Source of the DNA: a virus
Lineage: Duplodnaviria; Heunggongvirae; Uroviricota; Caudoviricetes
Reading direction: 5' to 3' (one strand)
DNA length: 15,076 nucleotides
Virus record (IMG/VR): IMGVR_UViG_2651869755_000010
Location: 1 to 15,076 of that record
The notes below the pieces were generated by a model. The model ran no database searches and was not told where the DNA came from. It saw only the letters and a program-made list of their open reading frames with translations. The first letter of the stretch is position 1, and each line of letters begins with the position of its first letter. This document shows positions 1-12,407 of this stretch, in pieces. The position numbers were made by a program, and so were the translations under genes.

Positions 1-247
1 GGCGGAGAGCATCAATGGTCTTTACAAAGCGGAGGTAATACACCGTAAGAGCTGGAAAAACCGTGCAGAAGTGGAACTGGCCACACTCACGTGGGTGGAC
101 TGGTATAACAATCGACGATTGCTGGAAAGGCTGGGCCATACTCCTCCGGCAGAAGCAGAAAAAGCTTATTATGCTTCCATCGGAAACGATGATCTGGCAG
201 CCTGAGTTCACAGATAAAATACTCTCCAGGAAACCCGGGGCGGTTCA
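1..247 (+). mobile_element. IS3-family insertion sequence, IS629-like, terminal portion containing the 3' end of the transposase gene; terminus at about 247
   Basis: Reverse complement of 206-247 reads TGAACCGCCCCGGGTTTCCTGGAGAGTATTTTATCTGTGAAC, which matches the terminal inverted repeat of IS629/IS3-group elements as I recall it (TGAACCGCCCCGGG...). It lies directly after the stop codon of an IS3-type transposase reading frame. Confidence 0.75.
2..205 (+). CDS. IS3-family transposase OrfB, C-terminal 67 codons (5'-partial, continues upstream of window)
   Basis: Frame 2 translates without a stop from the window start to TGA at 203-205: AESINGLYKAEVIHRKSWKNRAEVELATLTWVDWYNNRRLLERLGHTPPAEAEKAYYASIGNDDLAA. 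This is the characteristic C-terminal tail of IS3-family integrase-like transposases. Confidence 0.75.
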   Translation, partial: AESINGLYKAEVIHRKSWKNRAEVELATLTWVDWYNNRRLLERLGHTPPAEAEKAYYASIGNDDLAA

Positions 248-902
248 CAATAATAATTGGGCGTGTAGCACGTATCAGATCAATTGGCTTATCCAGATCG
301 TCAACGGTTGTTTTTTCACTGGACTGATAGAGCTTATTAACGTCTTTTTTGTTAATCGCACCAACTGTCATTACCATGATCTGCATAACAGAGCTGGTTG
401 CAAAATTTCGCACATCCGCAGGTTTAGACGAGTCATACAGATAGTATTCGTATGGAATTCCCGCATAGAGGCTTTTAAAATGTTCTTCAGTGATTTGTAG
501 TGTTTTATAAACGCCTTCCTTGATGGCAATGGAAGGAACCACAATGATAAATTTGCTCATGCCATAACGTTTATTCAGCTCCAGCATGGTGCGAAGATAA
601 ACATACGTTTTACCTGTCCCTGTTTCCATCTCGACAGTAAAATCATGGCTGTCGAGCACAGGTGAAGGTGGAAGCTGATTCTTCAACTGAACCTTGTTCA
701 GGTTTTTCAGCAGAACATCATCTTCGGGTATCTGTGGGTTTACAGGCATTGAACCTGTTGCGGCTTCAAATGAGAGTGCGCCCTGAGCTGGGGCCAGCAC
801 AGTCATTTCGCTCTCCCATTTCTCTTGCCCTTCAAATAAATCACAGACCGAAGTAATGGCGTTTTGCTGATAGGTAAGGTCAGATTCAAAATGTAGTTTC
901 AT
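248..902 (-). pseudogene. res: Type III restriction enzyme Res subunit, N-terminal fragment of about 218 codons, interrupted by the IS insertion
   Basis: Minus-strand ORF starts with ATG at 902, 9 nt after the mod stop, and carries helicase motif I (FTVEMETGTGKTYVY). The reading frame enters the IS terminal repeat at 247/248, around ...RATRPIIIV, where helicase motif II (DExH) would be expected. The remaining 51 codons of the track ORF 87..902 are read-through into IS sequence. Confidence 0.7.
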
Positions 903-911
903 CTCATTCCC

Positions 912-2888
912 TTACAGGCTGTGCAGGTTAGTCAGGCCGTGTTGTTCCAGAATGGCGCAAAGATTTGTTTTAGCGACGTTATTTTCAAACGCATCATCAA
1001 GGAAATAGCAGACCGTATCTTTCCCAACTTTTAAACTCTTATGCCAGTCGATGATCCCCTTGGTCAGTTCTTCTACTGAAGATGCAGGGATTTGTTTAGC
1101 AAAGCAGGTAAACAATTTGCCACCGTCAACGCAAGAAACGGTTAATCCATCAAACTGACGGGTTTCAATGTCTACACTCAGGTCAATGCCACGCTTAAGC
1201 ATCAACTCTGTGAGTAAATCTTCTTCACTACGGCCTTCGAGGATTGGACTTACATAGGCATCAATCTGTTGTGAAAGGGTATCAGCAGTCGCTTCCCACG
1301 GACGGATGTTAGATGTATCAAGTTTAAACACACGAAAGCCAACATCACCTTTCCATTCTGGATTGTCTTCACGAACTTTTTTACCTGCTCGGCGAAGGCG
1401 TTCTTTAGTTATTTCAGAAATTTTTAATGGCATTCCATTTTTATTTAAGAAGCTTGCAGCAACAATCTGCTCCTTTGTTTCTGGAACAACTGGTTCTGGT
1501 AGTTGCGTAATGATAAAATTTATCTTTCTATTCTTTGTTGCATTGGCCATGAAAACGGCATGACCAAAAGTACCTGATCCCCCAAAAAAATCAAGTGCTA
1601 TACCTTTTTCATTTGGGTGTGTAGCTATTTCTACTATACGTAAAAGAGTACCCAAAGGTTTTGGTCTTGAAAAAACTTCTTTTTCGAATCCCAGCTCAAT
1701 AAATTGTTCACTACCTCTTTCACTATTTACATCTTTATGTGTCCATGAAGAGGTAGCCTTTATTGCATCTCTTTTTGATAAATAGTCTTTCTCCATGATT
1801 CCCCACGTTTTTTTTGTGGGCATGAACTTAGCATAAACACTATCAATTTTCGATTTAGCTGTATCAAAACCCCATCGCCATCGTCCATCAGTACCATCAT
1901 CTCTAATTGGTTTAATTTCAATTAAATCATTTTTTTTCTGGTCTCTAGATATAAATAGTTCGTTTGTTTTTTGATCATAGTAAAAATAGTAAAACATATC
2001 TGGTCGATCTTCTCTACGGTCAGCATCACCAGTTTTACGTAAATCTATGTCACGGAATATTTCACCGTTTTCGTCTGTCTTATTATATCTCTTTGTTATT
2101 TTATCGTCAGGCTCAAAGCCATAGGTTTTTGCATAGTTAATGTTCTTCGCCATTACTAATATATATTCATGAGCTGTTGCTATGAATTTATCGTCAGACC
2201 GTCCTTTTGGATTGTTAGTATTAGCAATAAGGGATATGAAATTTTCTTCTCCAAAAATCTCAAAGCATATGCCACATAGGTTGTGAAGTTCATTTTCATC
2301 AATCGATATAAAAATAAAACCAGAGTTGGCAAGTAAGTTTCTTGCTAATTTTAGGCGAGGGTACATCATATTTAGCCAATCAGTGTGATAACGTCCACTG
2401 GTTTCTGTATTTGTGCTTAAGCGATTTCCATCTTCAGTTTGTCCAGTGATTTCAAGATAATTTTTCATGTTATCTTGGAAGTTATCTGGATACACAAAAT
2501 CTTTCCCGGTATTATAAGGCGGATCGATGTAAATAAGCTTAACTTTTCCAGCGTAGCTTTTTTGAAGAAGCTTCAACACTTCAAGGTTATCACCTTCGAT
2601 CATGACGTTTTTAGTGTTATCCCAATCAACGCTTTCATCTTTACATGGACGTAATGTGCCACGGGAAGGGGTAAGAGCAAGCTGACGAGCCTGACGCTTA
2701 CCATGCCAGTTCAGGCCATAGCGCTCTTCTTTGTCGTCTACATTTTCACCCAAGAGCTGTTTTAAAACGTCAAAATCAATACCGTTTTCATTAAATGCTT
2801 CAGGAAACAAAGAGTTAAGTTTGCTGATATTATCTTCAGTGATATTCATTGATTGTAGTTCTGTCATATCAGAAGTTATTTTTTTCAT
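912..2888 (-). CDS. mod: Type III restriction-modification system Mod subunit (beta-class N6-adenine DNA methyltransferase)
   Basis: 658-aa ORF with motif IV IYIDPPYNTG near residue 120 and motif I LDFFGGSGTFGHAV near residue 430 (beta-class order). The N-terminal region (LNWHGKRQARQLA, IEGDNLEVLKLL) resembles EcoP15I/StyLTI-type Mod. It lies directly upstream of a res-like helicase ORF. Confidence 0.9.
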   Translation of the reverse strand: MKKITSDMTELQSMNITEDNISKLNSLFPEAFNENGIDFDVLKQLLGENVDDKEERYGLNWHGKRQARQLALTPSRGTLRPCKDESVDWDNTKNVMIEGDNLEVLKLLQKSYAGKVKLIYIDPPYNTGKDFVYPDNFQDNMKNYLEITGQTEDGNRLSTNTETSGRYHTDWLNMMYPRLKLARNLLANSGFIFISIDENELHNLCGICFEIFGEENFISLIANTNNPKGRSDDKFIATAHEYILVMAKNINYAKTYGFEPDDKITKRYNKTDENGEIFRDIDLRKTGDADRREDRPDMFYYFYYDQKTNELFISRDQKKNDLIEIKPIRDDGTDGRWRWGFDTAKSKIDSVYAKFMPTKKTWGIMEKDYLSKRDAIKATSSWTHKDVNSERGSEQFIELGFEKEVFSRPKPLGTLLRIVEIATHPNEKGIALDFFGGSGTFGHAVFMANATKNRKINFIITQLPEPVVPETKEQIVAASFLNKNGMPLKISEITKERLRRAGKKVREDNPEWKGDVGFRVFKLDTSNIRPWEATADTLSQQIDAYVSPILEGRSEEDLLTELMLKRGIDLSVDIETRQFDGLTVSCVDGGKLFTCFAKQIPASSVEELTKGIIDWHKSLKVGKDTVCYFLDDAFENNVAKTNLCAILEQHGLTNLHSL

Positions 2889-3067
2889 AAAAAGTATCCG
2901 TCATGAGGTCACGGGAAATCAGTGTCCGAAATTGGTAAGCATTTTACGGTATGAAGTGATAGCCATCAACCAGTGATGGCTATTCAAACATATCTAAAAC
3001 AAAGGGTTACATGCTGCTATATGATGGGTTATCAAACGGTTAGCCGTAATTTTCTAACTCATAATGT

Positions 3068-4339
3068 TCACCTTTGGGCAAACTCAAACGGCCTGACCAT
3101 ATCGTTTCGATTGGCATCAAGGAAGTCAGCCCACCACTGGAGCATCAGTCGGCGCTGGTCAAGGTGTTTAGCCTTATGGGTATAAGCAGCACGGACGCTG
3201 TTGCTTTCCTTATGACTCATCTGAAGCTCTACAGCGTCTTCTGACCACAAACCTGACTCAATTAAGGCACTACAGGCCAGCGTGCGAAAACCGTGCCCAC
3301 AGATGTCCTGCTTCGTGTCATAGCCCATATTGCGAAGGGCTTTGTTGATGGTATTTTCGCTCATGGGCTTAAACGAGTCATAACAGCCAGTAAAGATTAA
3401 TCCATCATCATGGCCTTCTTCATAAGTCAGTTGTCGGATCTCTTTGAGTATCTTCATGGCCTGCTTACAAAGGGGAACGAAGTGCTTACGCTTCATTTTA
3501 GCCCCACGAGTTGAATGTTTGACGTTTTCAATCGCTTCACGCTGTTCGGGTATCACCCATAACTTACTTTTGAAATCAATTTCTGACCAGCGAGCGAAAC
3601 GCAGCTCACTGGAACGAATGAAAATCATCAGATTGAGCTGTATTGCCAGTATGGTTAACCTGCGGCCTTTGTATTCGGCAATTTTTTTCAGTAGTTGGGG
3701 TATTTCTTCCAGTTCCAGTGCAGGGCGGTGTTCAGTCTGCGGTTTCTGAATAGCACCTTCCATATCATAGGCCGGGTTATGACGTATAAGTTTCTGCTGA
3801 ACAGCATGACGCAGGATCGCAGTAATGTATTGTTGAATGCGCATGGCAACTTCAAGATAGCCAAGTGCCTCAACCTTTTTCACTGGAACCAGCAGATCAC
3901 CCGTATCCAGTTCGGCAACATCTTTATCGCCAATTGTCGGGAAGACATAGGTTTCAAGGCGCTTCCATACGGAATCACCATAATCTTTAGACCATTTTGT
4001 TTTCGTGGAGAACCAAGCTTTAGCGACTACGCTGAAAGAGCGTGTTTTATCACGTTTAGCTTTTAGCTCTTTAACTTCTGCCTGTTTCTTGGCATTAGGG
4101 TCAATGCCCTGAGCAAGAAGCCTTCTGGCTTCATCACGGCGTTGTCTTGCGTCAGAAAGAGAAACAGCAGGGTAAACACCAATAGAGAAGAGTTTTTGCT
4201 TCCCTTCAAAACGGTAGGCCATTTGCCAGTATTTGGAACCCTTCGGGGTAACGCGAAGGAACATACCAAAGCCATCAGTAAGCTTGTATTCCTTCTCAAG
4301 GGGTTTGGCATTTTTTGCTTTAATATCAGTCAGTGACAT
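3068..4339 (-). CDS. int: P4-type tyrosine integrase (site-specific recombinase) of the tRNA-Asn island
   Basis: The track ORF is 434 aa; the likely start is the internal ATG at 4339 (MSLTDIKAKNAKP...), typical of P4-family integrases. N-terminal arm-binding-like domain and C-terminal catalytic domain (GHGFRTLACSAL..., AAYTH). Adjacent to the tRNA-Asn 3' end. Confidence 0.85.
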   Translation of the reverse strand: MSLTDIKAKNAKPLEKEYKLTDGFGMFLRVTPKGSKYWQMAYRFEGKQKLFSIGVYPAVSLSDARQRRDEARRLLAQGIDPNAKKQAEVKELKAKRDKTRSFSVVAKAWFSTKTKWSKDYGDSVWKRLETYVFPTIGDKDVAELDTGDLLVPVKKVEALGYLEVAMRIQQYITAILRHAVQQKLIRHNPAYDMEGAIQKPQTEHRPALELEEIPQLLKKIAEYKGRRLTILAIQLNLMIFIRSSELRFARWSEIDFKSKLWVIPEQREAIENVKHSTRGAKMKRKHFVPLCKQAMKILKEIRQLTYEEGHDDGLIFTGCYDSFKPMSENTINKALRNMGYDTKQDICGHGFRTLACSALIESGLWSEDAVELQMSHKESNSVRAAYTHKAKHLDQRRLMLQWWADFLDANRNDMVRPFEFAQR

Positions 4340-4484
4340 GAAAAAATCCCCTCGATTGTTGGTAAAAGGCAAATCGAACCAGCATTACCAGCATTTTTAC
4401 CATCAAAATGATATGGCTTCGAGTGGTTTTTAGTGAACGAGGGTGAACGACTGAAGAGGGATAACCGATTGATAGAAATGCAGA

Positions 4485-4510
4485 AAGCAGACGTTAGTGA
4501 ACGTCTGCTT
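4485..4510 (-). terminator. Candidate intrinsic terminator downstream of tRNA-Asn
   Basis: 9-bp inverted repeat AAGCAGACG / CGTCTGCTT with an 8-nt loop, 10 nt after the tRNA 3' end on the minus strand. It is followed on the transcript by a moderately U-rich tract (UCUGCAUUUCUAU). Confidence 0.35.
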
Positions 4511-4519
4511 CCTTGAAAA

Positions 4520-4595
4520 TGGCTCCTCTGACTGGACTCGAACCAGTGACATACGGATTAACAGTCCGCCGTTCTACCGACTGAACTACAGAGGA
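4520..4595 (-). tRNA. asnT: tRNA-Asn (anticodon GUU)
   Basis: Reverse complement is TCCTCTGTAGTTCAGTCGGTAGAACGGCGGACTGTTAATCCGTATGTCACTGGTTCGAGTCCAGTCAGAGGAGCCA, 76 nt, a canonical cloverleaf with a GTT anticodon and encoded CCA. Called asnT rather than another asn copy because of the neighbouring mtfA and serU. Confidence 0.93.
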
Positions 4596-4695
4596 ATCGT
4601 GAGAACGGGGCGCATATTACTTAGCGGTACCTTGTCTGTCAACACTAAATTTCATAAGCCATTTCAATTGGTTAATTAATCTGCAAAGTTGTTAA

Positions 4696-5493
4696 TTAAT
4701 GAACATTCGTCGCCGAAAACGAGTCTGTATCATTAGCGTGATGCAGTCTCTGCAAAGGATCTTGTTGATAAAATTGACAGAAACGTTGCCACAATGAAGG
4801 GAAACGAGGAGCAAAAAGTTCTGGGGCGCTAAAGAAATATTCAGAAAGTACGGCAAAACATTCAGCAGGATCACTGGCAGCATAAGCATCAATGCTCGCC
4901 GCATTCTCACCAACTAATTCGATTTCTTCCTGAATGTTGTTCATTGCAGCATGAAGATCGTGTTCCCAGCCAGCAACCTCACGCAACGAAATAAAGGGAA
5001 CTCCGCTGGCGCGATCGCCGTTACGGGTGTCCAGCTTATGAGCGACTTCATGAATAATCAGGTTAAAACCAGAAGCATCAAAAGAATCTTGTATATCCAA
5101 CCAGTTCAAAACGATAGGCCCTTGCTGCCAGCTCTGACCTGACTGAACAATACGTTGGTTATGCACCAGACCGATATCGTCTTCCCATTCATCATCGACC
5201 ACAAATGGCGCAGGATAAATTAAGACTTCATGAAAACCATCCAGCCATTCCAGTCCTAACTCCAGAACGGGCAGGCAAAATAGAAGTGCTATCCGGCAGC
5301 TTCTTAATGAATTCAGCTCAAAGCCCTGTAAAGGAACAAGCCGTTTTTGCTGTAAAAAACGTTCGGCAAGAGCGACCAATTTGCTTTGTTCCTGTTCTGT
5401 CAGACACGTTAAAAGGGGGATCGATAGTGCTTCCTGCCAGGGAAGGGCAGTTTGATGTGCTGATTCTTGTACTTTCCAGGGCCACTTAATCAT
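4696..5493 (-). CDS. mtfA: MtfA (Mlc titration factor A), zinc-dependent peptidase family
   Basis: 265-aa product starting MIKWPWK... (ATG at 5493, internal to the track ORF 4696..5532). HExxH zinc-binding motif (IIHEVAHKL). Conserved position between asnT and serU, as in E. coli K-12. Confidence 0.9.
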
Positions 5494-5586
5494 CGTTTTG
5501 CTCGCAAACTCGTCACTTGAACAAAATTGCACGGACAGGGACTGTTAAAATGCCAAATTTCCTGGCATCATGGCAACCATCTGAAC

Positions 5587-5676
5587 GGAGAGATGCCGGA
5601 GCGGCTGAACGGACCGGTCTCGAAAACCGGAGTGGGGGCAACTCCACCGGGGGTTCAAATCCCCCTCTCTCCGCCA
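5587..5676 (+). tRNA. serU: tRNA-Ser (anticodon CGA), with long variable arm
   Basis: GGAGAGATGCCGGAGCGGCTGAACGGACCGGTCTCGAAAACCGGAGTGGGGGCAACTCCACCGGGGGTTCAAATCCCCCTCTCTCCGCCA, 90 nt: class II tRNA with CGA anticodon in the loop CTCGAAA and encoded CCA. Confidence 0.93.
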
Positions 5677-5721
5677 AAATTCAATCACTTACACATCATT
5701 AAGTCAGTGACAAAAATCACA

Positions 5722-5753
5722 CTTGGAATTACTTGGAATATTTTCTTGGAATA
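5722..5753. repeat. Three direct copies of CTTGGAAT in the tRNA-proximal att region (candidate integrase arm-type sites)
   Basis: CTTGGAAT occurs at 5722-5729, 5732-5739 and 5746-5753; the last two sit within a duplicated TTGGAATATTTTC. The repeats straddle the integrase stop codon at the prophage end. Confidence 0.3.
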
Positions 5754-6754
5754 TTTTCAGGTAACGGGACATCAAGTGTCGGTGAAACTTTAACCTTCCT
5801 GTCATAGATTAGCACTTGCCCCTCGGTTTTGTGACCAGAGAAAAGTTGCTTATCCCGACTGCTTCCTTCATAGTCTGAAATTCCTTTCGCCTTCAGATCA
5901 TGAAAGGTGAAGTCGGTTAAAATACCTGAAATTTTGCCTGCGCGATTTCTTGCTTCTACCCACATTTCGTTAAAGCCTTTGTACATATATCGGTTGCCGT
6001 ATTGATTGCTGATTACATAGGCGGATGTTGGTAACTGTTTTGCTTTTTCGATCGCCGCCTGTAATCGTGGACTCCATGCTTTTATCTGTTTTTTTCCTGT
6101 TTTCCCTTGCTGGATAAAGATCCCGTCGTTTCCAATCTGCTCCCATTTCAGCGATAACACATCGGAAACCCTCGCTGCACACAGATAGGCAATTTCCATT
6201 GCGATAAAAACAGGAAGAGGTGCAACGCTTAATACTGCCTGGTATTCTTTGTCGGTTACATATCGTTCGCGGTTTTTGGCCTTGAATTTACTTACACCTG
6301 CACATGGGTTAGCCTTCACGTACCCTCGCTCATACCCCCAACTGTAAACACGGGACATACTGCTTTTTTCATGGTTGGCTTGCGTTTTACTCTGCTCCCC
6401 TCTTTTGTCCATGTATCGACGGATGTGTTCTGGTTTTATGGAATCCGCTGGTACCTTACCGAATACGGCAAGCAACTTTTTTTGATGTTGCAGATAATCT
6501 TTTTGTGTTCTTGGACTAAGGTCACTGTAATAGGCGCTGGCGAGGAATTTTTCCCACAAGCGACCGAATGTCATTGCACGATCGCGATTATTTACAGTTT
6601 CCTCATACTTTTTCCATAAAGCAGCTAAACCATCCTTGATGGCGGTTAGTGTGACAGATTCTCTGGATGTTGGTTTCCATACATAACTATATTTATTTGG
6701 GTATACATTTGGAGGTAATTTTTCGTGTTCAGGATTTTTCCTTCGTCTTCCCAT
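5729..6754 (-). CDS. int: Prophage tyrosine integrase
   Basis: 341-aa ORF with phage-integrase-type C-terminal catalytic region (...FTFHDLKAKGISDY..., ...GHKTEGQVLIYDRK...). Convergent with and adjacent to tRNA-Ser; start codon overlaps the stop of the upstream xis-like ORF (ATGA). Confidence 0.88.
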   Translation of the reverse strand: MGRRRKNPEHEKLPPNVYPNKYSYVWKPTSRESVTLTAIKDGLAALWKKYEETVNNRDRAMTFGRLWEKFLASAYYSDLSPRTQKDYLQHQKKLLAVFGKVPADSIKPEHIRRYMDKRGEQSKTQANHEKSSMSRVYSWGYERGYVKANPCAGVSKFKAKNRERYVTDKEYQAVLSVAPLPVFIAMEIAYLCAARVSDVLSLKWEQIGNDGIFIQQGKTGKKQIKAWSPRLQAAIEKAKQLPTSAYVISNQYGNRYMYKGFNEMWVEARNRAGKISGILTDFTFHDLKAKGISDYEGSSRDKQLFSGHKTEGQVLIYDRKVKVSPTLDVPLPENIPRKYSK

Positions 6755-6957
6755 CAGATCGCACCAAAATTCGGCTCTACCTCGCGTGGTGGTAAAGTTT
6801 TATTGCAGGTAAATAGATCCCGGCTGACAATCGGTTTGCCACTACGATTGGTATAGAACGGAAGCCCGTTTTCCATTAACCATTTTCGCTGGTGGCTTGC
6901 ATATTTGCAGCCCGTTAATATTAGCAATTCATCTTCGGTTAAAAATAAGCTGCTCAT
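6754..6957 (-). CDS. Excisionase-like small protein (DUF4224-like) upstream of integrase
   Basis: 67-aa ORF MSSLFLTEDELLILTGCKYASHQRKWLMENGLPF..., overlapping the int start by 1 nt. Position and sequence pattern match the small proteins found directly upstream of prophage integrases. Confidence 0.55.
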   Translation of the reverse strand: MSSLFLTEDELLILTGCKYASHQRKWLMENGLPFYTNRSGKPIVSRDLFTCNKTLPPREVEPNFGAI

Positions 6958-7015
6958 AGCTATATCTCATAACCGCCGCTAACTATATACGGTTAGCGGC
7001 AATTAGGGTTGAACA

Positions 7016-9457
7016 TTAAAAATCAGCCTGACTCGGGATCAGTTTTTGCCAGATAGCTGAAACGTATTTTGCCTGGTAACGAGCGTCATCAAGTGCATTA
7101 TGGCGCTCACCTTCGAATGGAATAGCCGTTCTGGCATCGAAGTCTATGGCTTTCCCCAGCTCAACGATTGTGCGTACATCGCGATCGTTGTAGTAACGCC
7201 ACGGGCAGGTGATCCCCTGCCGTTCGTATGAACGGCGCAAAATCGTGTTGTCGAAGTTGGCTCCATTTCCCCAGACCTGAACAAAAAATTCACCGGAGTT
7301 TTCGTCGATAAATTCCCGCAATTGTAACAGTGCATCATCTAACGGGATTTCATCGGTCATAATGGCAGATTGCGCTTCGCGTGATTGCTTAAGCCACCAT
7401 TTAATGGTGTCCCGATCAATGACTCCGCCAGCAGTTTCCAGATCGATAGTCTTACTAAATTCCGGTCCCACATCTCCGGTTTGCGGATCGAAAAATATTG
7501 CACCTATTGAGATGATCGGGGCATCAGGATTTTTTCCCATGGTTTCAAGGTCGATCATTAGATGGTCACACGTCCTGCTGGTGGATGTGATTTCTTGATG
7601 ACCGTTCACCTTAATTGAGTGATCTGCCGTCTCGCCAGTTTCATTATCGCTATCGTGATGCTGATTGCCGCCAGTGTTCTCCTTGTGTGGATGTTCAGCG
7701 CCTTCCATTTTCTCCGGATCATTTTCCTGAACTTCAACCTGATTCTCTTCATCGAATGTTTCCTGGTATGTTGCGTCGCCCATCACCGCGCCACAATCAG
7801 GGCAGTTGCCGCCACCGCTCTGACCGCAGGCGGTGCTGACTTTTTCCGGTTCCTGTTGCGCTACTGGTTCGGATTGTTTCGTTTCTGGCTCGTTTTGTAA
7901 CGCATTTGGGCTGTTTTGTTCCGCTTTTTGGTCGTTCCGTTCCGATTCATGCTGGTTCTGGTTCACAGAATCGCGAGTCTGGATCCCCTTGACCCATTTC
8001 GGATCATTAGGGTCGCTAATCCCCTCAACAAATTCACCACGCGATACAGCAAGTAACTTATCGGCGTCAGGCTGGCTGATATTGGCTGCCTGCATAATTT
8101 TGTTTACTTCGTCAGCGGTGACTTTTACTTGGTTAGCGGAACTCACCTGCGACTGAGCATCCAGCGACTGCGCGTTCTGGCCATGTTCAGTTGTATCCGG
8201 TTCCATTGTTTCAGTTGTTGCCTGTTCACCTGCCATTGCGTCAGATGGTTGTGGTTTTTCTTCTTCTGTTTCACGCTCAGTAACCACCTCGCGGTTAATT
8301 TCTTCCAGGATATCTTTTTCCGGCGTATGCCGGGCAGCTGTGAGAGTTTCCTTGCTGGGGTTCTCGTGATCAGTTTCCGTCAAATAGGCGTTGATATACC
8401 CCTGAAGGCGTCCCGGGTAGTGATAAAATTCAGGGTGTGCGCTTCGGATAAGTGCAAAAATAGCGGCGCGGGAATAGTCCAGAATACCCGGGGTTGCACG
8501 AAGTGCTGCGGACCATTCTTTGAACGGACTTTCTTTGTTCAGGACTACTTCTTTTGCGCGACGATAAACGCTGCCCGGAATTTCATAAATATTAAAATCC
8601 ATCGGAAGTGTGGCTGCTGCAATCTCCACATCCAGTGTGTCGAGGGTGTGTACTAAATTCGGATTGCGATCGGTTTTGTTCCCACCGCCAGCATTAGCAC
8701 CGGAAGCCGTGCGGGTGATGCGTGAAACACGATTTCCTTTCATCCACTCTTTTGTCAGCAGACCCCGATCAGTGTAGTCAGCGTCCAGGTATGCTTCGAA
8801 AAAAGCAGTTATTAGTCCCAGGTCTGAATTACCAGGATTAGGGAAAACTTTGTCAGTGTCACGAACCAGTTTGTGGAGGTCGCGAATCTCCAGCGAGTCG
8901 AGCAGACTGGTTTTATGCGAAATAGCCAGGGCAGTAACAGCCGGTAGTTCTTCAGCCCGTGCAATGTGTAATGCCTGGAGTTCGTCGCGTGAAACGTGCG
9001 TTACTGGTTTTTCGCTGCCGTGTTGAGCAAGCCAACGAATGGGCAGTTCCTGACCGGAGACAGGCAGAAGCATGCTCTCCTCAATCTCAGTCATGTCTTC
9101 GCCGTTGATGTTGGTATTGTCAGTGCTGGCTGGTTTGTCCTGAACAGAGGGGGAAGGGCCGATAAATGTCATTGTGATGCCATCTTTCCCGCCTTTTTCA
9201 TAGCGGTTGCAGAATTCAGTATCAAACACGCCTTCTGGCGGAAGGTCGTCAACAACGGGCAAATTGACGCGGACGGGTTTTTTAAAGTCGTCTTCATCAT
9301 AATCGTTGTCATCCATTGCGGTAATGCAGCGGGAGATTGCAACAGATAATTTTTTTGCTGTAGTCCAGTAAAAACCACCTTTAATTCCCAGGCGTTTTCT
9401 TACTTTGTCATTTTTTGCTTCGCAATATAGTGCAAATTCTTCTTTATCAGTGCTCAT
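7016..9457 (-). CDS. Prophage exonuclease: long RecE/YdfE-like N-terminal region with acidic low-complexity centre and C-terminal DnaQ-like DEDDh 3'-5' exonuclease domain
   Basis: 813-aa ORF. The C-terminal 190 aa carry Exo I (MIDLETMG), Exo II (VWGNGANFD) and Exo III ([13 protein letters not shown]) motifs. The centre is Glu/Gln/Asp-rich and contains [13 protein letters not shown]. Position between xis and the dicB module matches ydfE (Qin) and recE (Rac). Confidence 0.8.
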
Positions 9458-9550
9458 TATTGATAAACCTCATCACAGATTTAAGGGTGAACAAATCTCT
9501 GCCATTGCTGACATATAAGAATGAAACTGGATATTTATTACGGTGCTGTT

Positions 9551-9739
9551 TTAAAATCCTGCCGGGATTTCGTTATCCTGGTGAATAACTTTATCGACCG
9601 GATAACAGTTGCCTGGAATTTTCTGTTCGGTTGCTGCGGCCATACATTCCTGCATTGTTCTGTGAACACTGACTGCAATATCAACTGGCTCTCCGGAAAC
9701 AAGAAAAACCGTCAGAATAAGTGCAAATACTGGATTCAT
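9551..9739 (-). CDS. ydfD: YdfD-like small lysis protein of the dicB operon
   Basis: 62-aa product MNPVFALILTVFLVSGEPVDIAVSVHRTMQECMAAATEQKIPGNCYPVDKVIHQDNEIPAGF, with a hydrophobic N-terminus. Start is the internal ATG at 9739 with an AAGGA Shine-Dalgarno, overlapping the dicB stop (ATGA). Matches my recollection of K-12 YdfD in size and sequence. Confidence 0.65.
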   Translation of the reverse strand: MNPVFALILTVFLVSGEPVDIAVSVHRTMQECMAAATEQKIPGNCYPVDKVIHQDNEIPAGF

Positions 9740-9924
9740 TGTGCACATCCTTTTGGCATCAGACGTAAACGGGCCAGCATTGAAACAATGCATACTTTAT
9801 TTAATAACTCCCGTTCGTGTTTTCTTTTGTTAATGGCCTCTTCAGTGAATACAGGATTACTGATAGTGACACCAATTTCAAAACAACCTTCAGACGTATT
9901 AACGTTTGGTAATAACGTTTTCAT
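9736..9924 (-). CDS. dicB: DicB cell-division inhibitor (MinC-dependent FtsZ-ring inhibitor)
   Basis: 62-aa product MKTLLPNVNTSEGCFEIGVTISNPVFTEEAINKRKHERELLNKVCIVSMLARLRLMPKGCAQ, starting at the internal ATG 9924 with a GAGGA Shine-Dalgarno 8 nt upstream. Near-identical to my recollection of E. coli DicB, and directly downstream of DicF. Confidence 0.75.
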   Translation of the reverse strand: MKTLLPNVNTSEGCFEIGVTISNPVFTEEAINKRKHERELLNKVCIVSMLARLRLMPKGCAQ

Positions 9925-10093
9925 TATCGCGTCCTCAACAATGAATTTTGTGATGCAGTGCCTGGTGCCTCCAGGTGACGTTAACCAGTTAACAATTAAC
10001 GCCGGATACAGAGAATCCACCCATAACACTGTTTTTGGTTTTAACTGTTCCGCGTGCGCTTAGCCGCATTCACCGCATCACAAAATTCACTTT

Positions 10094-10151
10094 AAAAACG
10101 GCGGCAGAGCAGTCACGGAGTAAAACTGATACCGCCAAACGTCACCAGAAA
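10094..10151 (-). ncRNA. dicF: DicF small RNA (ftsZ-targeting Hfq-dependent sRNA) with U-tail
   Basis: Minus-strand sequence TTTCTGGTGACGTTTGGCGGTATCAGTTTTACTCCGTGACTGCTCTGCCGCCG followed by TTTTT matches the 53-nt DicF sequence as I recall it. Contains a GGCGG...CCGCC terminator-like stem and lies between ydfC and dicB as in Qin. Ends are approximate. Confidence 0.7.
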
Positions 10152-10491
10152 ATTGATAACAGAGGGCGTTGCAGCGGGGTTGTCACTTAAGCGTATGGTC
10201 AACCTGACAACCCGGTGTCCTCAACGGGGAAGGAATAACCCCGCCATACTTACCGCCGCGCCATTTCGCGGATTGCCACAACCGGAAGCGCACGGTCGAC
10301 GAAAATTTAACGACAGGCTATCTATGAACCAGCTACCTCGCCGTGCGCTTTCGCGTTATGGTCTGACCTTTCAGGGAAATATCCTTTCAGTAAACTGTCT
10401 GTGCCGGATGCTCACCCGTGTCCGGCGCACGCACTCCACCTCATCCGTGGAGAACTCCTTAATTACCAACCTTAGCTTCGTTGGTTAGCTA

Positions 10492-10710
10492 TTAACGCGG
10501 GTATGTAATCATTCTGGCAATGCTTAATGCCGCTGCTTTTTCCAGATTAGTGATATCCTGCTCCAGAGCGGACAGATTTTCAGCCTGCTTAGCCCTGGCT
10601 TCATTGGCCCATTTCAGATCCTGCGCTGCATTAATTTTCTGGTGCATCCACTCATAAAGTTCATCATCGGTATAGTCTGGCGCGATGATGACGGGTTCTC
10701 GTTTCTGCAT
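10492..10710 (-). CDS. ydfC: YdfC-like small protein of the dicB operon
   Basis: 72-aa ORF MQKREPVIIAPDYTDDELYEWMHQKINAAQDLKWANEARAKQAENLSALEQDITNLEKAAALSIARMITYPR, with an AAGGAG Shine-Dalgarno 6 nt upstream of ATG 10710. Size and position match ydfC upstream of DicF. Confidence 0.65.
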   Translation of the reverse strand: MQKREPVIIAPDYTDDELYEWMHQKINAAQDLKWANEARAKQAENLSALEQDITNLEKAAALSIARMITYPR

Positions 10711-10802
10711 GTCGGCTCCTTGTGGTTAGCGTTGCCTGCTTTTAACCACGTCAGGCGAGGTGGTATCCTCTGAGGGGTCTGTTACTCGAGAGGAAATTGG
10801 TT

Positions 10803-11003
10803 ATGAGTACAATCAAGTTTTCTTGCCCAGAATGTGGTGGCGAAGTCTTTGACACATCCTTTAAGTCGCAGGGCTCTGACAGTTTCGCGGGAGCCATCTG
10901 CAAAAATTGTGGTCACCTTGTAACTGAAGATGAGTCCTCGCAGTTCGATGACGAAATCGTTGACAATATCTTCGGTGCACTTACCAGAGACTTTCTGAAG
11001 TAA
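10803..11003 (+). CDS. Small zinc-ribbon protein (CPECGG...CKNCGH), hypothetical; oriented opposite to the surrounding early-left operon
   Basis: 66-aa ORF MSTIKFSCPECGGEVFDTSFKSQGSDSFAGAICKNCGHLVTEDESSQFDDEIVDNIFGALTRDFLK, with a GAGAGGA Shine-Dalgarno 8 nt upstream of ATG 10803. Two CxxC pairs are spaced as in a zinc ribbon. The overlapping minus-strand ORF 10782..11138 uses 6 rare Arg codons (AGA/AGG/CGA) out of 9 and looks like a shadow frame. Confidence 0.4.
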   Translation: MSTIKFSCPECGGEVFDTSFKSQGSDSFAGAICKNCGHLVTEDESSQFDDEIVDNIFGALTRDFLK

Positions 11004-11049
11004 AGGCGCATACCGCTTAGTTACCGCTCTGATAATTCTTACCTGTCCG

Positions 11050-11092
11050 GCAATGGCGCTGATGTCAATATAAAGCGCCATTGCTGCTTCTT
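11050..11092 (+). terminator. Candidate intrinsic terminator downstream of the zinc-ribbon ORF
   Basis: Perfect 11-bp inverted repeat GCAATGGCGCT / AGCGCCATTGC (11050-11060 and 11074-11084) with a 13-nt loop, followed by TGCTTCTTTG. The loop is larger than usual for a terminator. Confidence 0.3.
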
Positions 11093-11348
11093 TGCCGATC
11101 CCGGGATGCCTTCCATTCTGATGTTTGACTTCGCCCACTGAGAAATCCTCTGTTTCCCCTTAACGCCGGGGTAGCGGAACAAAAACCTGCTGCATAGTTA
11201 TTAAAGTTGAACCCTGCCGTCATGTTCTTACGCCTCGGGCTGGCTACTTAACCCCTGACCACTGCCTGGTAACTCGAAGTATTGCCCTGCATTCTGTAGG
11301 ATGGGGTGAGGGAATGAATGAAGTTTAGAAAAACGAACTTTTCAGGTC

Positions 11349-11370
11349 AATGTTTTTTTATCAAAACATT
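11349..11370. promoter_or_regulatory. Candidate left operator (oL-like) palindrome AATGTTTT-N6-AAAACATT downstream of cI, probable pL region
   Basis: Palindrome TGTTTT-tttatc-AAAACA at 11351-11368, extending to 11349-11370. It has the same 6-6-6 geometry as the palindrome overlapping the cI start at 12073-12090. Confidence 0.35.
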
Positions 11371-11434
11371 TTAAGCAGGCAGCTGTTAAGCCATCACCAC
11401 GATGGCATACAGTTAATCAAATAGATGAGGTTGG

Positions 11435-12073
11435 TTAAATATCTTGTTGAATTTTAAAGCATACGCCCAATATGCAAGATAGATCATCCAGCATAATTGA
11501 AGGGTAGCGAGGATTCGTGGGGACTAAAAGAATATCCGGCCCTTCTATCTCCAGTTTACGAATGACAGGTGTTGTGGTCCCTTTGGGTAAGGCAAGGACA
11601 ATATTTCCTGGTTGTACGGTTCGATCGGGATCAACAAAAACTGTTGAACCATTTGGGATGGAAACTCCCCCACCAGATGTTGACATACTGTCACTCTCTA
11701 GAACAACTGCAAAGGTATTGACCGGGATTTCTCCGACAAGCTGCACACAAGAGGTTATTGAGGAATTTTTCATATAATCACTCCAGCTTGCTGCCTGCTG
11801 AAGTGATAGTAGCGGAACCGTTTTTATCGGCGGTAAAGATAGATCAAGCGAATCACCTGTATTTAACTCTCCTCCATTAAGAAGCCAATTTTCGTTTACT
11901 TTCAATATTTTTGCCAGGGAACTTATGTAACGCGAGGACGGCGCTCCTCCACCGTTCATCCATTGACTTACGGAGCCTTTTGATGCGCCAGTGCCATTGA
12001 CAAGGTCTTTGCCTTTCAGGTTTAGCGCATGCATACGTTGGGTTATGCGTTCAGATATAGTTTGCTTGCTCAT
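11435..12073 (-). CDS. CI-type prophage repressor (N-terminal HTH, C-terminal S24 LexA-like autopeptidase domain)
   Basis: 212-aa ORF with an N-terminal HTH region (...GKDLVNGTGASKGSVSQWMNGG...) and a C-terminal S24-like domain (candidate Ser in VLESDSMSTSGG, Lys in VIRKLE). Divergent from a cro-like gene. No Shine-Dalgarno precedes the start codon, which lies inside the operator palindrome. Confidence 0.85.
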   Translation of the reverse strand: MSKQTISERITQRMHALNLKGKDLVNGTGASKGSVSQWMNGGGAPSSRYISSLAKILKVNENWLLNGGELNTGDSLDLSLPPIKTVPLLSLQQAASWSDYMKNSSITSCVQLVGEIPVNTFAVVLESDSMSTSGGGVSIPNGSTVFVDPDRTVQPGNIVLALPKGTTTPVIRKLEIEGPDILLVPTNPRYPSIMLDDLSCILGVCFKIQQDI

Positions 12074-12136
12074 GTTTTGATTTTAAAACACAGATGGTTT
12101 TGTTTCTTGACTTTCTTTGGTTTTGATTATTAAACT
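12073..12136. promoter_or_regulatory. Immunity-region operator/promoter segment (oR-like): palindrome TGTTTT-N6-AAAACA at 12073-12090, degenerate copy at 12119-12136, candidate pR -35 TTGACT at 12107-12112
   Basis: The 91-bp divergent cI/cro intergenic region holds TGTTTTgattttAAAACA, GGTTTTgattatTAAACT and a recurring GGTTTTG motif. TTGACT lies 17 bp upstream of TTAAAC, oriented toward cro. Confidence 0.4.
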
Positions 12137-12164
12137 TTTGACGTTCAGTTTTATGGAGCGACTC

Positions 12165-12407
12165 ATGAAAAAATCAGAAGTATTAGGCTATTTTGGCGGA
12201 GTTGTTAAAACAGCCGCAGCTCTAGGAACGTCAAAAACCACAGTCAGCATGTGGGGGGAAGAGGTTCCGTGGAAATGGGCGTTGCTAATTCAGGCAGTCA
12301 CTGCCGGGGCGCTCAAATATGAGTTACACATACCGACGGTTGTCATTCCCGGTTCTGATCATAATCCGCCTTCTAACCAAGGGGGGATTCATGAAAATCA
12401 AGCATGA
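12165..12407 (+). CDS. Cro-like / YdaS-family HTH regulator
   Basis: 80-aa ORF MKKSEVLGYFGGVVKTAAALGTSKTTVSMWGEEVPWKWALLIQAVTAGALKY..., with a GGAG Shine-Dalgarno upstream of ATG 12165. It is the first gene of the rightward operon, divergent from cI. The 3' end overlaps the next gene by 17 nt, so the true C-terminus is uncertain. Confidence 0.6.
   Translation: MKKSEVLGYFGGVVKTAAALGTSKTTVSMWGEEVPWKWALLIQAVTAGALKYELHIPTVVIPGSDHNPPSNQGGIHENQA

Follow-up and report, generated by a model that had tools for sequence, protein, structure and literature searches.

A Qin-like dicBF module in the early-left arm of a lambdoid prophage with a CI-type repressor

Division inhibitors have been described in the early operons of several phages, including Kil of lambda (PMC3961180) and YmfM (SfiC) of e14 (10.1101/2020.11.19.390815). 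Together with Rac kilR, these genes follow the same logic as dicBF, i.e. a small FtsZ-ring inhibitor encoded in a repressor-controlled early operon and switched on by derepression, although they have no sequence relationship to dicBF, and Kil acts directly on FtsZ whereas DicB depends on MinC and ZipA for its action, DicF being an antisense RNA (PMC3961180; 10.1101/2020.11.19.390815). In the Qin prophage of K-12, the operon ydfA-ydfB-ydfC-dicF-dicB-ydfD is placed under DicA/DicC, and its promoter, dicBp, has been described as a PL analogue (10.1101/2023.04.14.536235). K-12 DicB binds MinC, is targeted to the septum in a ZipA-dependent manner and inhibits ManYZ (PMC6832061), K-12 YdfD is a membrane lysis protein and an inhibitor of IspG (PMC8835842), and DicF, which RNase E and RNase III process (10.1101/2023.04.14.536235), has been demonstrated experimentally to use its 3' region for pairing with ftsZ and its 5' end for pairing with xylR (PMC5069750). 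Published work has already covered the module, how widely it is distributed among E. coli prophages, the fact that pathogens have more than one copy and its occurrence in viable phages. Among the functional lambdoid phages that carry dicBF are Tritos (OV696610), mEp460 and its evolved derivatives, PPompW and several Stx2 phages.

The stretch of phage DNA analysed here (15,076 nt, hereafter the window) contains, on its minus strand, all four of the parts that the original prediction had located in 9551-10710, namely ydfC, DicF, dicB and ydfD, in the order ydfC-dicF-dicB-ydfD that it shares with Qin. Alignment with the K-12 Qin dicB operon, proposed earlier as a check, returned an intact module at approximately 96% nucleotide identity (95.8%, confined to window positions 9466-10710), a match far beyond chance. 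The module had been called complete, which holds for the four named parts but not for ydfA and ydfB, the first genes of the Qin operon, as tblastn with YdfA and YdfB gave no match in the window. DicA, searched in the same manner, matched the HTH of the window CI alone at 35% identity, with no Qin-type DicA/DicC pair present. Because Qin homology is limited to 9466-10710, with ydfA, ydfB and dicA absent and the exonuclease unrelated, the view that this locus is a mosaic and not a copy of Qin was borne out, and such mosaicism is expected for lambdoid phages. In Qin and the window alike, the module is found downstream of the repressor gene, on the same strand as that gene and on the PL-type side, and a 28-bp leader element is common to both. 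However, ydfA, ydfB and dicA of Qin give way in the window to a zinc-ribbon ORF and to an HTH+S24 repressor that has other operators. This ORF (10803..11003, plus strand, 66 aa) is a member of the ECs_2282-family of CxxC zinc-ribbon proteins (55.9 bits with NCBIfam NF047912, cutoff 37, with which the PGAP annotation of an identical region agrees), is convergent with the operon and occupies the slot held by ydfA and ydfB in Qin.

DicF, a small RNA of 53 nt with a terminator hairpin, is located at 10099..10151 on the minus strand between ydfC and dicB, both of which were confirmed as its neighbours. It matches Rfam RF00039 over model positions 1-52 of 52 (72.5 bits, gathering score 48, E=1e-14), and a terminator-type 3' hairpin is present in both the Rfam structure line and the MFE fold. 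Identity to K-12 DicF extends to 52 of the 53 nucleotides, the sole change being C to G at nt 53, which is unpaired in both the predicted fold and the predicted ftsZ duplex; the predicted duplex energy (-38.9 versus -38.5 kcal/mol) and the predicted fold are likewise unaltered by this change. The ftsZ-pairing 3' region and the xylR-pairing 5' end are thus unchanged (nt 1-52 as in K-12; regions as defined in PMC5069750), and the loss of the ftsZ-pairing part, which had been put forward as grounds for abandoning the prediction, was not observed. The original prediction had assigned ftsZ pairing to the 5' region, whereas experiments place it in the 3' region, with xylR pairing at the 5' end (PMC5069750); this error does not affect the conclusion on the module, since the only nucleotide that differs from K-12 is unpaired. 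The spacer between ydfC and dicF (10152..10491, minus strand), assigned as putative DicF precursor RNA by K-12 alignment and folding, differs from K-12 by about 12 substitutions across 340 nt while the 120 nt directly 5' of DicF are identical, and the 411-nt precursor has a folding z-score of -2.85 relative to shuffles. The dicF-dicB spacer (9925..10098, minus strand), which corresponds to the dicB 5' leader, carries 2 substitutions relative to K-12. An STnc100 match at 10101..9892 falls below the Rfam threshold (34.5 bits, gathering score 47, E=3.8e-5), and the search for other RNA families in 9400-12300 returned nothing beyond it.

The protein-coding parts are intact as well. The dicB gene (9736..9924, minus strand), preceded by a GAGGA ribosome-binding site, encodes a predicted MinC-dependent cell-division inhibitor of 62 aa that matches Pfam PF05358 over positions 1-62 of 62 (132.1 bits, cutoff 27) and NCBIfam NF049927 (130.7 bits, cutoff 100). 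Its frame, the disruption of which would have spoken against the prediction, is intact, and 59 of its 62 residues are identical to K-12 DicB, the three changes (D29E, Q36H and I44V) all being conservative; the statement that DicB has been reported to exclude phages through ManYZ was found to rest on a genuine report (PMC6832061). The ydfD-like gene (9551..9739, minus strand, 62 aa) encodes a DUF1482 protein (PF07358, 85.3 bits, cutoff 25) that agrees with the 63-aa K-12 YdfD at 54 of 62 aligned residues and differs from it by a one-codon deletion and 7 substitutions, and its ATG overlaps the stop codon of dicB (ATGA) in the manner of translationally coupled genes. PGAP labels the identical protein 'DUF1482 family protein' and not 'lysis protein YdfD'. 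The first gene of the Qin-homologous block, ydfC (10492..10710, minus strand, 72 aa), lies behind an AAGGAG ribosome-binding site and is identical to K-12 YdfC in 71 of 72 residues; PGAP names the identical sequence 'protein YdfC', and its product had no match among the Pfam or NCBIfam models. Several mechanically listed ORFs in this region were set aside as artefacts of the listing, namely two on the plus strand of 111 aa (10153-10488) and 180 aa (9521-10063), one of 118 aa antisense to the zinc-ribbon gene, and two extended minus-strand ORFs of 97 aa and 80 aa, the latter being an over-extension of the ydfD-like gene, the real ATG of which is the one at the dicB stop codon.

It may be argued that the module is an inert relic which this prophage carries along after losing its expression or function, given that dicBF products are toxic when overexpressed and that many copies reside in defective prophages (PMC5069750). 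Against this view, the ydfC, dicB and ydfD-like frames are all open and each has a ribosome-binding site, DicF is almost unchanged from K-12 and the 120-nt processing region that flanks it is identical, and thousands of genomes as well as viable phages preserve the block at 96-100% identity. The relic explanation was already disfavoured on these grounds, and we consider it highly improbable. The unusualness that the original prediction had implied is not supported: the module was matched in 4756 of 5426 complete E. coli genomes (88%) with a median of 2 copies, 248 complete E. coli genomes contain the junction between DicF and this particular repressor (window 10090-12120) at full length and 98.9% identity, an HTH+S24 repressor stands beside dicBF in at least 35 of 120 viral-contig loci, and functional phages carry the module as well (10.1101/2023.04.14.536235). 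Judged by its sequence, the module is of the well-known dicBF kind that inhibits division in E. coli, real but ordinary, being present in the majority of E. coli genomes and in living phages and frequently adjoining this same repressor. NCBI annotation of near-identical genomes already names these module genes, and the locus carries little weight as a discovery, its uses being a clean annotation of the prophage arm and a corrected ftsZ-pairing end of DicF.

The regulatory region points to a PL-type organisation. An OL-type operator, TGTTTT-N6-AAAACA, is found as a perfect 18-bp palindrome at 11351..11368, where it abuts the -35 hexamer of a putative PL-like sigma-70 promoter (11322..11350, minus strand; TTGACC, 17-nt spacer, TAAACT) that faces the module and was recognised in a consensus scan through 9 of 12 consensus positions, nothing more. 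The only other perfect match to this palindrome in the window is located at 12073-12090, at the start of cI; the pair was also recovered by a repeat finder, and approximately 0.002 perfect matches are expected in the window by chance. This second site is part of an OR region (12073..12136) that also contains two degenerate copies (12095-12108 and 12118-12134) and, on the plus strand at 12107-12136, a PR-like promoter detected by promoter scan, beyond which lies a cro-type gene of the P22_Cro family (12165..12407, plus strand; Pfam PF14549, 56.9 bits), the start codon of which was chosen by its GGAG ribosome-binding site. As in lambdoid PL-type operons, operators are shared by the PR/PRM region and the leftward promoter while the int, xis and recombination genes lie on the same strand, and the two perfect palindromes support repressor control of the PL-type operon that carries the module. 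In addition, the block shared at 99.8% identity with L001, a prophage of different immunity, ends at 11308, directly downstream of the PL-like promoter, as expected if promoter, operators and repressor move together as an immunity cassette.

Between this promoter and ydfC no N-like ORF was seen, and the leader element common to the window and Qin (11153..11180, minus strand) is found here. It has its Qin counterpart in the dicA-ydfA intergenic region, may form a CCCC-N8-GGGG hairpin, and represents the sole similarity to Qin outside the block; the exact pattern also occurs in Tritos and in loci L001, L003 and L006. Among 120 viral loci the stem reads CCCC/GGGG in 114 and CCCT/GGGG in 5, and the search for covariation in these loci revealed a single U-G-compatible variant, which provides no support for or against the structure. 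Among the points that count against the PL model are the plus-strand gene that lies between the promoter and ydfC, and the lack of a visible N-type antiterminator although transcription has to pass the DicF terminator in order to reach dicB. The DicF terminator of Qin is read through without N.

Downstream of the module, the same leftward operon continues into an exonuclease gene (7016..9457, minus strand) identified by Pfam and NCBIfam. The original description of an intact 813-aa exonuclease was correct in that the ORF is uninterrupted, but the protein is not a RecE-type nuclease, as a RecE N-terminal region is fused to a DEDDh 3'-5' domain: Pfam detects an Exonuc_VIII N-terminal region and, at aa 632-803, an Rv2179c-like 3'-5' exonuclease domain (228 bits), and the NCBIfam RecE model matches over positions 1-602 of 877 only. 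The exonuclease remnant of Qin is cut short by an adjacent IS2 and is unrelated to the window gene; as an ancestor of the 813-aa gene it was rejected for lack of similarity. Next are an excisionase-position gene with DUF4224 (6754-6957, minus strand; Pfam) and an ST64B-type tyrosine integrase (5729-6754, minus strand; Pfam and tblastn), which matches Klebsiella and Salmonella (ST64B-type) phage integrases over aa 1-328 of 341 and adjoins a tRNA-Ser(CGA) at 5587-5676, recognised by its tRNA identity. The integrase, too, had been described as intact, and its ORF is open through the catalytic Tyr, although PGAP annotates DNA of 100% identity in another genome as carrying a frameshift at the very end of the C-terminus. 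These features support a lambdoid prophage integrated at tRNA-Ser(CGA) beside mtfA, which is not the Qin site. Its minus strand carries int, the xis-position gene, exo, ydfD, dicB, DicF, ydfC and cI, and its plus strand cro, a ydaT-like gene and replication genes, an order also found in Tritos and in whole prophages whose head and tail genes are complete; because the window ends inside the replication region, the completeness of its own prophage is judged from such relatives only.

Taken together, dicBF is very probably a host-takeover module of a lambdoid prophage, carried in an early-left, PL-type operon under a CI-type repressor, where it occupies the position that kil has in lambda. The window itself shows what every part is and that it is intact, how the operon is laid out, which operators are shared and where the mosaic boundaries lie, whereas the molecular activities in this model are taken from work on K-12 Qin, and we infer the control by the window CI and the trigger of derepression. 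In the lysogen, CI would bind the TGTTTT-N6-AAAACA operators at cI-cro and beside the leftward promoter (11350 to 11322), keeping the operon off. Once the repressor is inactivated, leftward transcription would pass through the leader hairpin, the antisense strand of the zinc-ribbon gene and ydfC, and would then continue through the 340-nt structured spacer, DicF, dicB and ydfD into the exonuclease gene, the excisionase-position gene and the integrase gene. DicF would block ftsZ translation with its 3' region and would act on xylR and other mRNAs with its 5' end; a DicB-MinC complex would be carried to the septum through ZipA, leading to the dismantling of FtsZ rings, and would also shut ManYZ, by which lambda-like phages would be excluded; and YdfD would act as a membrane lysis protein that inhibits IspG.

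How this operon might be derepressed depends on the repressor, a 212-aa protein (11435..12073, minus strand) assigned by Pfam and by alignment with lambda CI (3bdn) and its own family. In agreement with the prediction that it is not of the DicA type, it combines an HTH with Peptidase_S24, the latter scoring 49.4 bits against a cutoff of 23.3 and HTH_3 20.8 bits, just below the cutoff of 23, with the HTH backed by matches to the structures of the 434, P22 C2 and lambda repressors. The further claim that it is a LexA-like cleavable CI was sustained as regards the S24 domain and the catalytic dyad, Ser129 (ESDSM) and Lys173 (IRKL) aligning with Ser149 and Lys192 of lambda CI and being invariant in the family, but not as regards the cleavage site. 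LexA and lambda CI are cleaved at an Ala-Gly bond, and Mo et al. 2014 are said to have found a preference for Gly at the LexA scissile position. Here, Ala94-Ala95 aligns with lambda Ala111-Gly112 (3bdn) in place of Ala-Gly or Cys-Gly, and the surrounding LQQAASW does not vary among those aligned homologs in which the region is retained, down to 84% identity, or among 16 viral-contig copies. Given Ala-Ala at this position, SOS cleavage is unproven, and both cleavability and the coupling to SOS on which the original prediction relied constitute an assumption.

It is nevertheless conceivable that the repressor cleaves itself in the classical RecA-stimulated manner of a CI, such that DNA damage would directly derepress the operon and DicF and DicB would be co-expressed with SOS. 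This is suggested by the HTH and Peptidase_S24 architecture, by the aligned Ser/Lys dyad, by a distance of 35 residues between the putative cleavage site and Ser, as in LexA, and by the precedent of e14, where an SOS-inducible prophage division inhibitor stands under a CI-like repressor (10.1101/2020.11.19.390815). It also agrees with the annotation of L006, a prophage carrying this CI, in which no Rem-like antirepressor appears at the position equivalent to that of rem in Qin. On the other hand, Ala replaces the scissile Gly throughout the family, a Gly-to-Asp change at the equivalent position renders LexA uncleavable (PMC11787620), this being the only substitution that papers citing Mo et al. 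2014 document as uncleavable, and two other S24-type repressor families beside dicBF have lost the nucleophile Ser, one reading GDAM, in which Ala-Gly is kept but Ala replaces Ser, and the other DDTM, with Thr in its place. Direct self-cleavage accordingly has, in our estimation, somewhat short of an even chance.

The same conserved Ala-Ala and the loss of catalytic residues in the sister families would fit a repressor that does not cleave itself and retains S24 for dimerisation only, with derepression by an antirepressor or in a bistable or stress-dependent manner as for DicA/Rem in Qin. DicA is combined with the antirepressor Rem in Qin as well as in the functional phage mEp460, and derepression of Qin is spontaneous or induced by urea or heat (10.1101/2023.04.14.536235). 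However, the Ser/Lys dyad is strictly conserved in the family, which is unexpected if catalysis is dispensable, and no antirepressor gene was found in the window, which ends at the replication genes, or at the rem position of L006; this explanation is held only tentatively. A scan for LexA boxes in the window gave 2 one-mismatch matches against 4.7 expected, neither of them near a promoter. More broadly, the HTH+S24 repressors linked to dicBF might be CI look-alikes devoid of classical RecA-stimulated Ala-Gly autocleavage and the leader hairpin, which recurs across different immunity types, an N-independent cis element for readthrough of the DicF terminator, a joint proposition that we regard as unlikely; if it were true, expression of DicF and DicB would be uncoupled from SOS or coupled to it differently, for instance via an antirepressor. 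An S24 domain beside dicBF is insufficient on its own to establish SOS inducibility, and the non-canonical scissile site and the catalytic residues of dicBF-linked CI-like repressors are the only point that is perhaps of further interest.

Comparison with relatives illustrates how the module is combined with various immunity and integration regions. The functional phages named at the outset share with the window the arrangement int, xis, exo, ydfD, dicB, DicF, ydfC and repressor, with modules that are 93-97% identical; DicF is explicitly annotated in Tritos, which differs by a short 139-aa HTH-only CI and by the possession of ydfA and ydfB, while for mEp460_evo81 DicA plus Rem have been reported instead (10.1101/2023.04.14.536235). 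Prophages in which dicBF stands next to the same CI, such as that of strain EC5 at potC and the in-silico prophage records vB_EcoS-813R8 and -640R1, in which CI is 100% identical to that of the window, differ from it in integrase and attachment site. The GenBank 'phages' of the vB_Eco...R series were rejected as isolated virions, since they were predicted as prophages from clinical isolates (10.1101/2022.06.29.498070); mtfA and host tRNAs are present in one of these records. At most 67% of the window is covered by any one complete E. coli genome, and CP170378, which matches the module at 100%, carries HPI in its flanks instead of a type III R-M island, together with other immunity and replication genes.

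The dicBF module occupies 9551-10710, all of its parts lying on the minus strand; the interval opens with the stop codon of a ydfD-like gene and closes with the ydfC start codon. DicF, a 53-nt RNA by the K-12 definition, lies at 10151..10099 and is matched over the whole Rfam model (10150..10099; 72.5 bits against a gathering score of 48, E=1e-14), while dicB (9924..9736, 62 aa) gives a full-length Pfam DicB match of 132 bits and scores 130.7 bits with the NCBIfam model (cutoff 100), its stop codon being overlapped by the ATG of the ydfD-like gene (9739..9551, 62 aa; DUF1482, 85 bits). An 80-aa ORF at the latter position in a mechanical ORF list was discarded as an over-extension of the 62-aa gene. 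The product of ydfC (10710..10492, 72 aa) has no match to any Pfam or NCBIfam family model and shares 71 of its 72 residues with K-12 YdfC. Direct alignment to the dicBF locus of the Qin prophage of K-12 MG1655 gave 95.8% nucleotide identity over 9466-10710; DicB is identical at 59 of 62 positions (D29E, Q36H and I44V being the changes), and YdfD has 62 aa instead of the 63 in K-12 through a one-codon deletion. The sole difference in DicF is its last base (nt 53, C->G), which is unpaired in both the predicted fold and the predicted duplex with the ftsZ leader, the predicted DicF-ftsZ energies of the two versions being essentially equal (-38.9 versus -38.5 kcal/mol); the 120 nt upstream of DicF, the region of precursor processing, show no differences. 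The family matches and the Qin alignment thus confirm that the module is present, intact and correctly named, and since the DicF pairing region has been kept and the dicB frame is unbroken, the original prediction stands in this respect. Its placement of ftsZ pairing in the 5' region of DicF has to be corrected, as mutational work assigns ftsZ pairing to the 3' region and xylR pairing to the 5' end (PMC5069750).

An unusual degree of structure is predicted for the ydfC-DicF precursor RNA (10090-10500, minus strand, 411 nt; MFE -151.6 kcal/mol, z=-2.85): none of 100 shuffled sequences folded equally well, and such a predicted fold would fit with long duplexes being cut by RNase III. A sub-threshold match to STnc100, a Salmonella sRNA candidate in Rfam, covers the dicF-dicB spacer and the dicB start (9892-10101, minus strand; 34.5 bits against a gathering score of 47, E=3.8e-5, full model length).

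The Qin-like block extends from 9466, barely beyond the start codon of the exonuclease gene, to precisely the ATG of ydfC; the only other similarity to Qin is a 28-bp island (11153-11180), which Qin has between dicA and ydfA, immediately 5' of the ribosome-binding site of ydfA. The Qin genes ydfA, ydfB and dicA were not found in the window, and a search for similarity between the Qin exonuclease remnant and the 813-aa protein of the window indicated that they are unrelated, all of which bears out the description of the module as a mosaic rather than a simple Qin copy. Whereas Qin has ydfA/ydfB, the window carries a plus-strand zinc-ribbon ORF of 66 aa with CxxC motifs (10803-11003; NCBIfam ECs_2282 family, 55.9 bits). 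Convergent with the leftward operon, this ORF has a promoter-like site of its own (10786-10813) and is possibly expressed in the lysogen; the roughly 430 nt of leader beyond it contain no convincing ORF.

The surrounding DNA is one arm of a lambdoid prophage that has integrated at tRNA-Ser(CGA), next to mtfA. Its minus strand carries, in order of transcription, the HTH+S24 repressor, the dicBF block, the exonuclease, a DUF4224 gene in the excisionase position and the integrase; a P22-Cro-type gene, a YdaT-like gene and replication genes are on the plus strand. Near-identical prophages at the same site in other strains possess complete HK97-type head and lambda-type tail modules. With regard to the exonuclease (7016-9457, minus strand, 813 aa), an exonuclease domain is indeed present, but it is not of the RecE type: residues 1-615 match only positions 1-602 of the 877 in the RecE (exodeoxyribonuclease VIII) model, taken to be its non-catalytic N-terminal part, and the C-terminus is a DEDDh Rv2179c-like 3'-5' exonuclease (exoribonuclease) domain (228 bits). 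Judged by these domain matches, the protein is a chimera and not a RecE-type nuclease, and no Bet/RecT-type annealase gene adjoins it. The integrase, previously called intact, is open over 341 aa and aligns with Klebsiella and Salmonella (ST64B-type) phage integrases as far as residue 328, beyond the Tyr near position 317, but PGAP labels the 100% identical DNA in genome CP170378 as frameshifted. The discrepancy concerns only the last residues past '...ENIP', beside the tRNA-Ser attachment site, where (5704-5760, minus strand) the window ORF ends '...ENIPRKYSK' and an alternative frame reads '...ENIPSNSKCDFCH' and ends at 5704. Positions 1-4595 hold a different island, at the tRNA-Asn site where related strains have the yersiniabactin HPI, with a P4-type integrase (3068-4372), an intact type III restriction-modification methyltransferase of 658 aa (912-2888), the first 271 codons of its endonuclease gene (87-902) and, next to this remnant, the C-terminal end of an IS3-family transposase reading frame (71-205, plus strand).

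The 1160-bp block has matches in 4756 of 5426 complete E. coli genomes (at least 80% coverage in 2718), with a median of 2 and a maximum of 10 copies per genome, and occurs in sequenced phages including Tritos (DicF annotated), mEp460 derivatives, PPompW and Stx2 phages. The segment reaching from DicF through the window repressor gene is found at 80% coverage or more in 248 complete genomes, with about 98.9% identity among the best matches listed; in one of them the prophage lies at potC with a different integrase. Among 120 IMG/VR loci chosen by presence of a conserved leader element, the upstream repressor is DicA-like in about 33, the window CI (full length, at 90% identity or more) in 16, a second HTH+S24 type, likewise full-length, in another 16 and a third S24 type in 3. 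It has been reported that dicF/dicBF is common among resident prophages and multicopy in O157 (PMC5069750), as also conveyed by 'Qin and its widespread relatives' (PMC3961180, citing Faubladier and Bouche 1994), and a functional phage with dicBF has been described (10.1101/2023.04.14.536235). Lambda Kil and the SOS-inducible YmfM/SfiC of e14 are established cases of division inhibitors expressed from repressor-controlled early operons (PMC3961180; 10.1101/2020.11.19.390815). By these counts and this literature, it is therefore ordinary, though implied to be unusual, for an apparently complete prophage to combine dicBF with a repressor of the S24 type; annotated genomes and publications already cover the module and its position, how widely it is spread and even its pairing with this repressor.

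The 18-bp palindrome TGTTTT-N6-AAAACA has just two perfect copies in the window, with about 0.002 expected by chance (12 specified bases, 15 kb, both strands): one (12073-12090) lies where cI begins, and the other (11351-11368) sits immediately against the -35 hexamer of a promoter-like site pointing leftward (11350->11322, minus strand; TTGACC, 17-nt spacer, TAAACT). In front of cro, degenerate copies occupy the interval between -35 and -10 of a promoter-like site pointing rightward. Strain 1428_w1, which has a different repressor, shares 4516-11308 with the window at 99.8% identity, and this block ends just downstream of the leftward promoter-like site, as would be expected if the repressor moved with its operators and promoter as one immunity cassette. 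We take the module to belong to a PL-type operon controlled by the CI-type repressor, with promoter and repressor binding both inferred, in parallel to Qin, where dicBp has been described as the PL analogue (PMC6832061; 10.1101/2023.04.14.536235). About 135-160 nt downstream of the PL-like promoter is the leader element of 25-28 nt, CCGCTACCCC[G/A]GCGTTAAGGGGAAA, which could form a CCCC-N8-GGGG hairpin; the window copy (11153-11180, minus strand) coincides with the Qin-like island, and further copies lie at 6489-6513 (L002), 7489-7513 (L004), 21603-21627 (L001), 24643-24667 (L003) and 10065-10089 (L006). Prophages that differ in repressor and in the genes downstream (ydfA/B or the zinc-ribbon ORF) have it in common, and it might be a nut- or put-like readthrough element or be tied to the ribosome-binding site of ydfA. 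Of the 120 viral-contig loci, 114 have the stem CCCC/GGGG and 5 have CCCT/GGGG, without true covariation across them.

The original prediction of a LexA-like cleavable CI holds for the S24 domain and the catalytic dyad of the repressor (11435-12073, minus strand), Ser129/Lys173 aligning with Ser149/Lys192 of lambda CI, but not for the scissile bond, since lambda Ala111-Gly112 aligns with Ala94-Ala95. The distance from the Ala-Ala site to the Ser is 35 residues, as in LexA, and LQQAASW is invariant in homologs down to 84% identity and in 16 of 16 viral-contig copies; a LexA with Gly->Asp at the scissile-Gly position is uncleavable (PMC11787620). Comparison with L001 (21870-22514) and viral loci L054, L056 and L095 showed that all three HTH+S24 families beside dicBF deviate from canonical LexA/lambda-CI motifs: the second keeps Ala-Gly and has GDAM in place of GDSM (Ala for the nucleophile Ser), and the third (L001 type) has DDTM, with Thr at that position. 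Given the Ala-Ala site and these atypical sister families, it is plausible but unproven that SOS induction switches on DicF and DicB together, and derepression through an antirepressor or another route is about equally probable. In L006, from E. coli EC5, PGAP calls the window-type repressor (10347-10985) as a 339-bp 'LexA family protein' comprising the S24 part only; the full 212-codon stretch gives the same HTH+S24 Pfam result as the window gene, and the short call may reflect start-site choice rather than a real truncation.
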